NCBI RefSeq assembly: GCF_044324785.1
Contig: NZ_CP172127.1
Reading direction: 5' to 3' (one strand)
Length of the DNA stretch: 64,000 bases
Source: Escherichia coli
GTDB taxonomy: Bacteria > Pseudomonadota > Gammaproteobacteria > Enterobacterales > Enterobacteriaceae
Under the pieces are notes generated by a model. That model was not told the origin of the DNA, ran no database searches, and worked only from the letters and a program-made list of their open reading frames with translations. Position numbers and translations under genes: made by a program. This document shows positions 9,480 to 12,807 of this stretch, one piece after another (within the stretch, counting starts at the first letter, position 1; each line of letters begins with the position of its first letter).

Positions 9480-11922
<2,443 letters not shown>

Positions 11923-12079
11923 CGCTGACGCAGGGCGGCGAGAAAAAGAGAAGTTACTGGCTGGTGGAGGATTAGGTGGTGAAATAAAAAGGCCGTTGGG
12001 TTACTCTTCAGGCAGTTAAATGGGCATTTCTACACAGATAATGCGATGTTCAGATTCTGTAGACTTATAATGATAGATA

Positions 12080-12235
12080 ATGATCCGTCTACAGCATGAC
12101 AAACAAAAACAGATGCGTTACGGAACTTTACAAAAACGAGACACTCTAACCCTTTGCTTGCTCAAATTGCAGCTAATGGAGTGGCGTTTCGATAGCGCGT
12201 GGAAATTTGGTTTGGGGAGACTTTACCTCGGATGA
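12080..12235 (+). CDS. rseD: rpoE leader peptide RseD, 51 aa (MIRLQHDKQKQMRYG...GRLYLG)
   Basis: ATG 12080 to TGA 12233-12235; its stop overlaps the rpoE ATG (ATGA); below the ORF-track size cutoff; matches the recalled rpoE leader ORF. Confidence 0.6.
   Translation: MIRLQHDKQKQMRYGTLQKRDTLTLCLLKLQLMEWRFDSAWKFGLGRLYLG
12122..12149 (+). promoter_or_regulatory. SigmaE-dependent rpoE promoter (GGAACTT-N16-TCTAA)
   Basis: Exact sigmaE -35/-10 consensus with 16-nt spacer, about 85 bp upstream of the rpoE ATG and inside rseD. Confidence 0.8.
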
Positions 12236-12807
12236 GCGAGCAGTTAACGGACCAGGTCCTGGTTGAACGGGTCCAGAAGGGAGATCAGAAAGCCTTTAAC
12301 TTACTGGTAGTGCGCTATCAGCATAAAGTGGCGAGTCTGGTTTCCCGCTATGTGCCGTCGGGTGATGTTCCCGATGTGGTACAAGAAGCTTTTATTAAAG
12401 CCTATCGTGCGCTGGATTCGTTCCGGGGAGATAGCGCTTTTTATACATGGCTGTATCGGATTGCTGTAAATACAGCAAAAAATTACCTGGTTGCTCAGGG
12501 GCGTCGTCCACCTTCCAGTGATGTGGATGCCATTGAAGCTGAAAACTTCGAAAGTGGCGGCGCGTTGAAAGAAATTTCGAACCCTGAGAACTTAATGTTG
12601 TCAGAAGAACTGAGACAGATAGTTTTCCGAACTATTGAGTCCCTCCCGGAAGATTTACGCATGGCAATAACCTTGCGGGAGCTGGATGGCCTGAGCTATG
12701 AAGAGATAGCCGCTATCATGGATTGTCCGGTAGGTACGGTGCGTTCACGTATCTTCCGAGCGAGGGAAGCTATTGATAACAAAGTTCAACCGCTTATCAG
12801 GCGTTGA
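12232..12807 (+). CDS. rpoE: RNA polymerase sigma-E factor, 191 aa
   Basis: ORF 12199..12807; internal ATG at 12232 (MSEQLTDQ...); ECF sigma regions 2 and 4. Confidence 0.97.
   Translation: MSEQLTDQVLVERVQKGDQKAFNLLVVRYQHKVASLVSRYVPSGDVPDVVQEAFIKAYRALDSFRGDSAFYTWLYRIAVNTAKNYLVAQGRRPPSSDVDAIEAENFESGGALKEISNPENLMLSEELRQIVFRTIESLPEDLRMAITLRELDGLSYEEIAAIMDCPVGTVRSRIFRAREAIDNKVQPLIRR

Follow-up and report, generated by a model that had tools for sequence, protein, structure and literature searches.

In Escherichia coli, the operon that encodes sigmaE is described as rseD-rpoE-rseA-rseB-rseC, with promoters located 'upstream of, or within' rseD, and the autoregulated rpoE promoter is designated P6 in the six-promoter scheme (formerly P2). 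The open reading frame (ORF) now called rseD was reportedly introduced as 'ORF51', a frame whose stop overlaps the rpoE start and to which rpoE is said to be translationally coupled, loss of the coupling reportedly decreasing rpoE translation by more than 50%. The naming paper is also said to have mapped CsrA to three leader sites, of which two cover the Shine-Dalgarno sequence (SD) and the AUG. CsrA is further established to bind the rpoE leader as a repressor of translation, its sites lying over the SD and the AUG, and the accounts given in reviews describe a distant rpoE SD that is linked to the AUG by a bulged U-rich stem stabilised by polyamines. A chromosomal lacZ translational fusion had validated the rseD frame before it was detected by PIRT-seq in a genome-wide reporter-transposon study of 2025; in the ribosome-profiling and small-protein papers examined, no mention of rseD was found in the main texts, nor in the PIRT-seq supplements. 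The gene is already known: its name dates from 2017, and both the coupling to rpoE and the positions of the promoters have been published.

To compare the locus with these descriptions, we use positions of the window, that is, the whole stretch of 64,000 nucleotides (64 kb) of E. coli DNA that was analysed. The genes and codons concerned are the following.

10202-11824, minus strand: nadB
255-nt intergenic region: the gap between nadB and rseD, followed by rseD, rpoE, rseA, rseB, rseC and lepA, all on the plus strand
12080-12235, plus strand: rseD coding sequence, 51 codons plus TGA (12233-12235), found in the ORF list, as a RefSeq CDS and by NCBIfam NF033697
12113-12115, plus strand: in-frame ATG (Met12), the start of some annotated 40-aa RseD proteins
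12176-12178, plus strand: in-frame internal ATG (Met33), the start of a 19-codon ORF that runs to the same TGA
12232-12235, plus strand: ATGA, the overlap of the rpoE start codon (12232-12234) with the rseD stop codon (12233-12235), as read in the sequence
12232-12807, plus strand: rpoE coding sequence (sigmaE, 191 aa), from the ORF list and RefSeq

The initial annotation had described a 51-codon ORF from ATG 12080 to TGA 12233-12235, which the sequence, the ORF list and the RefSeq coordinates confirm, and had named it rseD, the leader ORF of rpoE; this name is correct, as shown by RefSeq at identical coordinates, by NCBIfam NF033697 and by the operon literature. RefSeq labels exactly 12080-12235 as 'rpoE leader peptide RseD' (b4725), and in E. 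coli K-12 MG1655 b4725 is located at 2710009-2710164 (YP_009518806.1 / WP_001303621.1). Translation of 12080-12235 yields a product of 51 aa, MIRLQHDKQKQMRYGTLQKRDTLTLCLLKLQLMEWRFDSAWKFGLGRLYLG, which matched the NCBIfam equivalog NF033697 leader_RseD with 104.2 bits (cut-off 35; E=3e-30), the match comprising residues 7-51 only, on profile positions 1-45 of 45. When 5.8 billion proteins were searched, the homologues retrieved were the RseD entries of Escherichia, Shigella and Citrobacter, with the exception of a few unnamed entries and of one 'partial' entry that is labelled Pseudomonas aeruginosa and carried on a 320-nt contig. One homologue (P0006), an RseD of 40 aa, matches 78% of the query at 100% identity; among the RseD entries in RefSeq, some are 40 aa long and start from Met12, and others are of 33-48 or 64 aa. 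As entry lengths differ and NF033697 covers residues 7-51 only, the true rseD start is not uniformly annotated.

The analysis shows the identity of the ORF, its geometry, the promoter inside it, the pattern of conservation and the predicted structures; its translation, and a contribution of coupling that reportedly exceeds half of rpoE translation, come from the literature. The reading that we favour, with a probability of roughly 0.85, is that rseD is the known translated leader of the rpoE operon, that its translation is coupled to that of rpoE and that its peptide is probably a by-product. On transcripts from promoters located 5' of 12080, ribosomes would translate the 51 codons, traverse the structured, CsrA-bound rpoE initiation region and, once they reach UGA 12233-12235, initiate again at AUG 12232, with which it overlaps; this coupling would raise sigmaE synthesis. 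We infer that the melting of the structure and the displacement of CsrA constitute the physical basis of the coupling. Transcripts from the sigmaE promoter would begin near 12156, without the rseD start, and on these mRNAs rpoE would rely on its own distant SD, modulated by CsrA and polyamines. It is probably the act of translation that counts, and the RseD peptide would have no function of its own.

The promoter elements of the locus are as follows.

12122-12149, plus strand: sigmaE-dependent autoregulated rpoE promoter, -35 GGAACTT (12122-12128) and -10 TCTAA (12145-12149), in rseD codons 15-24
12066-12071, plus strand: TATAAT hexamer, a candidate -10 located 8 nt 5' of the rseD ATG, 80-90% conserved in Enterobacteriaceae

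The claim that a perfect sigmaE promoter is embedded in the ORF held: GGAACTT-N16-TCTAA at 12122-12149 on the plus strand is unique in the 64 kb, with 0 expected in shuffled sequence. A relaxed sigmaE promoter match was present 70-80 nt 5' of rpoE in 32 of 32 Enterobacterales sequences (the window and 31 loci), and a relaxed search of the window for further sigmaE promoters returned the rpoE promoter only. From the usual promoter geometry, the sigmaE transcript would start at about 12155-12157. A scan of 11800-12300 for sigma70 promoters and terminators gave no hits, and no -35 that would match TATAAT 12066-12071 was recognisable. A transcript from this candidate hexamer would be nearly leaderless, because its start would fall at or within a few nucleotides of the rseD AUG; the hexamer may be one of the published upstream promoters.

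In the rpoE initiation region, which is also the 3' part of rseD, two features are relevant.

12210-12233, plus strand: local hairpin joining the distant SD to the AUG in the minimum free energy (MFE) fold, 93% paired in 32 Enterobacterales
12178-12232, plus strand: four GGA motifs in the sequence (12178, 12201, 12216 and 12230), candidate CsrA sites, the assignment of single sites being putative

The rpoE SD, GGGGAG at 12214-12219, is unusually distant, 12 nt before the AUG, and the SD-to-AUG stretch 12214-12231, GGGGAGAC(A/T)TTACCTCGGATGAGCGAGCAG, is almost invariant across Enterobacterales. In the MFE fold predicted for the sigmaE transcript, 12210-12217 is paired with 12226-12233, and across the 32 species nearly all substitutions in the SD-AUG hairpin preserve pairing. 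The hairpin at 12210-12233 matches the bulged U-rich stem that reviews of the polyamine modulon describe for rpoE. An Rfam scan of 11700-12500 at E<=1 yielded no match. Further upstream within rseD, the conserved block GAGTGGCGTTTCGAT..ACGCGTGGA at 12179-12203 ends in GGA 12201-12203, which is better conserved than GGA 12178. GGA 12201-12203 may be the third CsrA site.

As the sigmaE promoter lies inside the ORF, the initial annotation had noted that its transcripts would carry only the last 19 codons, from an internal ATG at 12176. This is arithmetically right: sigmaE-promoter transcripts lack ATG 12080 (and 12113) and keep only the 19-codon in-frame ORF, and in the sequence ATG 12176 is in frame as codon 33, with 19 codons remaining. 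An alternative to translation of the whole leader is that this 19-codon ORF is translated on the abundant sigmaE-promoter transcripts and gives the same coupling, the short upstream ORF being the one that operates under stress. Some 20 nt separate the internal ATG from the inferred 5' end, and the frame that it opens ends at the same ATGA; Serratia and Photorhabdus carry a 19-codon ATG ORF at the same place, E. cloacae one of 21 codons, and in most Enterobacterales no stop interrupts the frame 3' of the sigmaE start site. No SD precedes 12176, but this holds likewise for the rseD start, since no recognisable SD is found in the sequence before ATG 12080, which is yet reported to be translated. 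However, an ATG at -56 to -62 was found in only 9 of the 32 Enterobacterales, few parts of the leader are less conserved than the adjacent columns, and ATG 12176 overlaps a GGA motif that is itself a possible CsrA site. In the literature examined we found no experimental evidence for the short ORF. Sequence comparisons thus support its use weakly, and we consider it unlikely that it is the operative frame.

The favoured reading, a leader whose translation matters more than its product, was then set against the conservation of the region. Codon-periodic conservation with a third-position excess, a sign of purifying selection on a small protein, was absent in rseD, although this absence is no strict proof against the function of a short lineage-specific peptide. 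Among Enterobacteriaceae, identity to E. coli at the first, second and third codon positions was 0.75/0.71/0.76 for rseD versus 0.97/0.99/0.71 for rpoE. Between E. coli and Citrobacter, the 21 rseD differences are distributed 6/8/7 over the codon positions, versus 3/1/32 in rpoE, and the two rseD differences between E. coli and E. albertii are both non-synonymous. The amino-acid variation between E. coli and Citrobacter sits in the promoter spacer, and the conserved residues lie over the -35, the -10 and the RNA elements. At the nucleotide level, the conserved blocks are TATAAT 12066-12071, the A-rich tract together with the -35, the -10, TGCTTGCTC at 12157-12165, the block at 12179-12203 and the SD-to-AUG stretch; they overlie promoter elements, the SD, GGA motifs and the arms of a predicted helix (see below). 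Enterobacter sp. Bisph1 and a related metagenome-assembled genome (MAG) carry a frameshifting indel of 1 nt in the best-conserved segment. Conservation of ATG 12080 and of the Met12 ATG ends with Escherichia and Citrobacter: about 40% of Enterobacteriaceae keep the T of ATG 12080, and other genera have at rpoE upstream ATG ORFs of 19-69 codons, or none. Open codons number just 8-20 in Siccibacter, Shimwellia, Mixta, some Pantoea and Tatumella. With the start codons kept in two genera only and so short an open frame in several Enterobacterales, coupling to a long upstream ORF is not universal.

Within E. coli, a 476-nt query around rseD found a match in 5,425 of 5,426 complete genomes, and rseD is intact and annotated in essentially all of these 5,425. 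Over the 221 nt of 12040-12260, identity was 99% or higher in every one of the 5,425 matching genomes and 100% in 38 of the 40 that were sampled along the ranking; over the whole 476-nt query, 1,064 E. coli genomes showed only 95-99% identity. Intergenic DNA just 5' of 12040-12260 varies by up to 5-10% among E. coli genomes. As the near-invariance within E. coli takes in the non-coding flank from 12040, the constraint is on nucleotides.

These data bear on a second alternative, in which RseD itself would function in the envelope-stress response as a small protein that works in trans, as do RseA, RseB and RseC, and would overlap rpoE only for co-expression. This possibility was reportedly raised by the discoverers when the gene was named. 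The ORF is translated in vivo according to the PIRT-seq and lacZ fusion literature, it is intact and annotated throughout the E. coli genomes, and it has an equivalog model of its own in NCBIfam. Against a protein-level role, the codon periodicity is missing, with the even spread of the differences from Citrobacter; the variable residues are those of the promoter spacer and the conserved ones those of the -35, the -10 and the RNA elements; the frame is shifted in Enterobacter sp. Bisph1 and its relative; homologues are confined to Escherichia, Shigella and Citrobacter; and the near-invariance in E. coli, reaching into the non-coding flank, fits constraint at the nucleotide level. We regard a protein-level function as very unlikely. 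Taken together, the comparative data suggest that the translation of rseD matters and the peptide does not, and we conclude that rseD is a translated leader whose product is probably irrelevant.

We then considered how much of the arrangement could be due to chance. The initial annotation had taken the ATGA as the classic arrangement for coupling. The stop/start overlap with rpoE is indeed present on the plus strand; as a coupling signature, however, it is uninformative and was rejected, because RpoE begins with Met-Ser (ATG AGC), which makes the TGA in the +1 frame automatic. The ATGA was found in most of 80 gammaproteobacterial rpoE loci, whether an upstream ORF is present or not. The size of the ORF alone likewise means little, as 191 ATG-initiated ORFs of at least 51 codons occur in the window. 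When the upstream 240 nt were shuffled, however, a run of 52 or more open codons at the rseD position had P=0.03, and an ATG ORF of 51 or more codons P=0.008. In 32 Enterobacterales, the median open length upstream of rpoE is 38 codons in the rseD frame versus 18 and 13 in the other frames, an excess that is supportive but gives no formal probability because the species are related. That the ORF is functionless, its TGA forced by the Met-Ser start and its frame open by a chance lack of stops in dense regulatory sequence, would agree with the ubiquity of the ATGA, the 191 comparable ORFs and a conservation wholly at the nucleotide level, but is highly improbable in view of the roughly 2-fold longer rseD frame in the 32 species, the shuffle P=0.008, the translation shown by published translational fusions and PIRT-seq, and the coupling effect that is reportedly published.

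ORFs that end in ATGA on the rpoE start were also seen elsewhere. In Zobellella (L046) and a related MAG (L059), ORFs of 74-75 codons at about 1280-1504, unrelated in sequence to RseD, end in this way, as does a 19-codon ORF (MYEFERL...) in two Shewanella loci (L063 and L064). ORFs that abut rpoE from upstream seem to have arisen repeatedly.

Returning to rseD as a translated leader, the conserved block with which the sigmaE transcript begins has the complementarity to base-pair with the start of rpoE, and the two segments are the arms of a predicted helix.

12154-12164, plus strand: 5' arm of the helix, UUGCUUGCUCA, at the 5' end of the sigmaE transcript and in rseD codons 26-29; from the MFE fold, RNAalifold, and register and shuffle tests
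12233-12243, plus strand: 3' arm of the helix, UGAGCGAGCAG, comprising the UG of the rpoE AUG and codons 2-4

The two arms form a predicted helix of 11 bp that is stacked on the SD-AUG hairpin, and the predicted fold sets the rpoE AUG between this closing helix of the 5' end and the hairpin. The RNAalifold consensus includes the helix 12154-12164/12233-12243, the 5' arm is conserved as strongly as the promoter hexamers, and complementarity between the 5' arm and the start extends over 9-16 bp in nearly all Enterobacterales. In the aligned sequences 87% of the helix cells are paired, versus 23-45% in slid registers, and the helix is better than those of shuffled leaders (p<=0.026) in 30 of 31 sequences, the exception being a Pantoea MAG (L021); a Photorhabdus locus (L029), which was outside the shuffle test, has a helix of 10 bp. 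In the core helix of 8 bp, every substitution in the 5' arm keeps the pairing (U replacing C opposite G, and G replacing A opposite U), bar one cell in the same Pantoea MAG. No two-sided covariation was found in the rpoE initiation region within Enterobacterales, and in the closing helix none is possible within the order because the 3' arm is fixed by coding. Fold energies of the whole leader were no better than those of shuffles (z -0.86 and -0.55), so that the structural argument consists of conservation and local complementarity only.

Three loci, beyond the order or on its margin, carry changes that look compensatory: in L032, codon 2 is AAT for AGC and the lead has a C-to-U change; in an Alteromonadaceae locus (L057), GAA for GAG is accompanied by GUUUGCU for GCUUGCU; and a Siccibacter locus (L040) has a differing lead, CUGCUCGC, and retains complementarity to GCGAGCAG. 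In Aeromonas, Zobellella, Idiomarinaceae, Neptunicella and Shewanella, GAGCC, GGGCC or UUCGAGC is complementary to GGCUC(G) just 5' of the AUG, and further leader-to-start pairings in Gammaproteobacteria join GCUUGC or GUUUGCU to GCGAGC or AGCGAAC. Duplex z-scores were -2.4 to -4.2 in several of the loci with GAGCC, GGGCC or UUCGAGC, some of these duplexes (Shewanella, L061) taking in promoter sequence 5' of the start site. Leader-to-start pairing was not found in Pasteurellaceae or Rheinheimera, and Vibrio gave a weak signal only. A covariance model of the enterobacterial leader had weak hits only outside the order, driven by the coding start, and provided no usable cross-order alignment. We found no description of the helix in the literature or in Rfam, in a search whose scope did not include the primary rseD paper.

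We tentatively propose, while holding it to be less probable than its absence, that the conserved block 12154-12164 exists to pair with the rpoE AUG and codons 2-4, so that this helix and the SD-AUG hairpin would jointly enclose the start codon in the whole leader. Such pairing could lower the translation of the autoregulated mRNA, shield the 5' end of this mRNA and be the structure that is opened by rseD-translating ribosomes and thus the physical basis of the coupling. The helix is a lead and not a result, and it is possibly the sole new one.

What the analysis adds to the annotation is this conserved complementarity between the 5' end and the start codon, together with the evidence against protein-level selection on the peptide, and nothing else. 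As rseD behaves as a translated regulatory leader and not as a protein gene, a search for a trans-acting RseD function is disfavoured, and attention shifts to the RNA elements under the ORF: the promoters, the CsrA sites, the polyamine-responsive hairpin and the possible helix between the 5' end and the start codon. If true, the helix would provide a mechanistic account of differing sigmaE synthesis from stress-induced (sigmaE-promoter) and upstream-promoter transcripts, and would explain what rseD-translating ribosomes must open.

Compared with known systems, the locus is the same gene as E. coli K-12 rseD (b4725), with the same 51 codons, ATGA overlap and embedded sigmaE promoter, and no difference. 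It resembles coupled AUGA/UGAUG pairs (trpE-trpD, trpB-trpA and the ribosomal protein operons) in the stop/start overlap and, reportedly, in downstream initiation aided by arriving ribosomes, and it may resemble them in a weak or structured downstream initiation region, the rpoE SD being 12 nt from the AUG and in a predicted hairpin. In contrast to these pairs, the upstream frame of rseD is short and has no protein-level conservation, and a major promoter inside it gives mRNAs that would bypass the coupling. With the attenuation leader peptides (trpL, hisL and pheL), rseD shares a short leader ORF and the term 'leader peptide'; unlike them, it has no terminator/antiterminator, no Rfam family and no regulatory codon run, and its reported effect is on initiation of translation of the next gene and not on termination of transcription. 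The possibility that rseD is an attenuation leader was rejected, because neither a terminator-like site (in 11800-12300) nor an Rfam leader family was found. Among the polyamine-modulon initiation regions (oppA, rmf, cpxR and rpoE; Terui et al. 2009), the rpoE region, as reviews present it, is the same RNA as the 3' third of rseD, with the distant SD and the bulged U-rich stem at 12210-12233, and the CsrA-repressed leader is again the same RNA, with GGA motifs over the SD and the AUG. The polyamine and CsrA studies treat this region as an untranslated leader, whereas on upstream-promoter transcripts it is translated as rseD.
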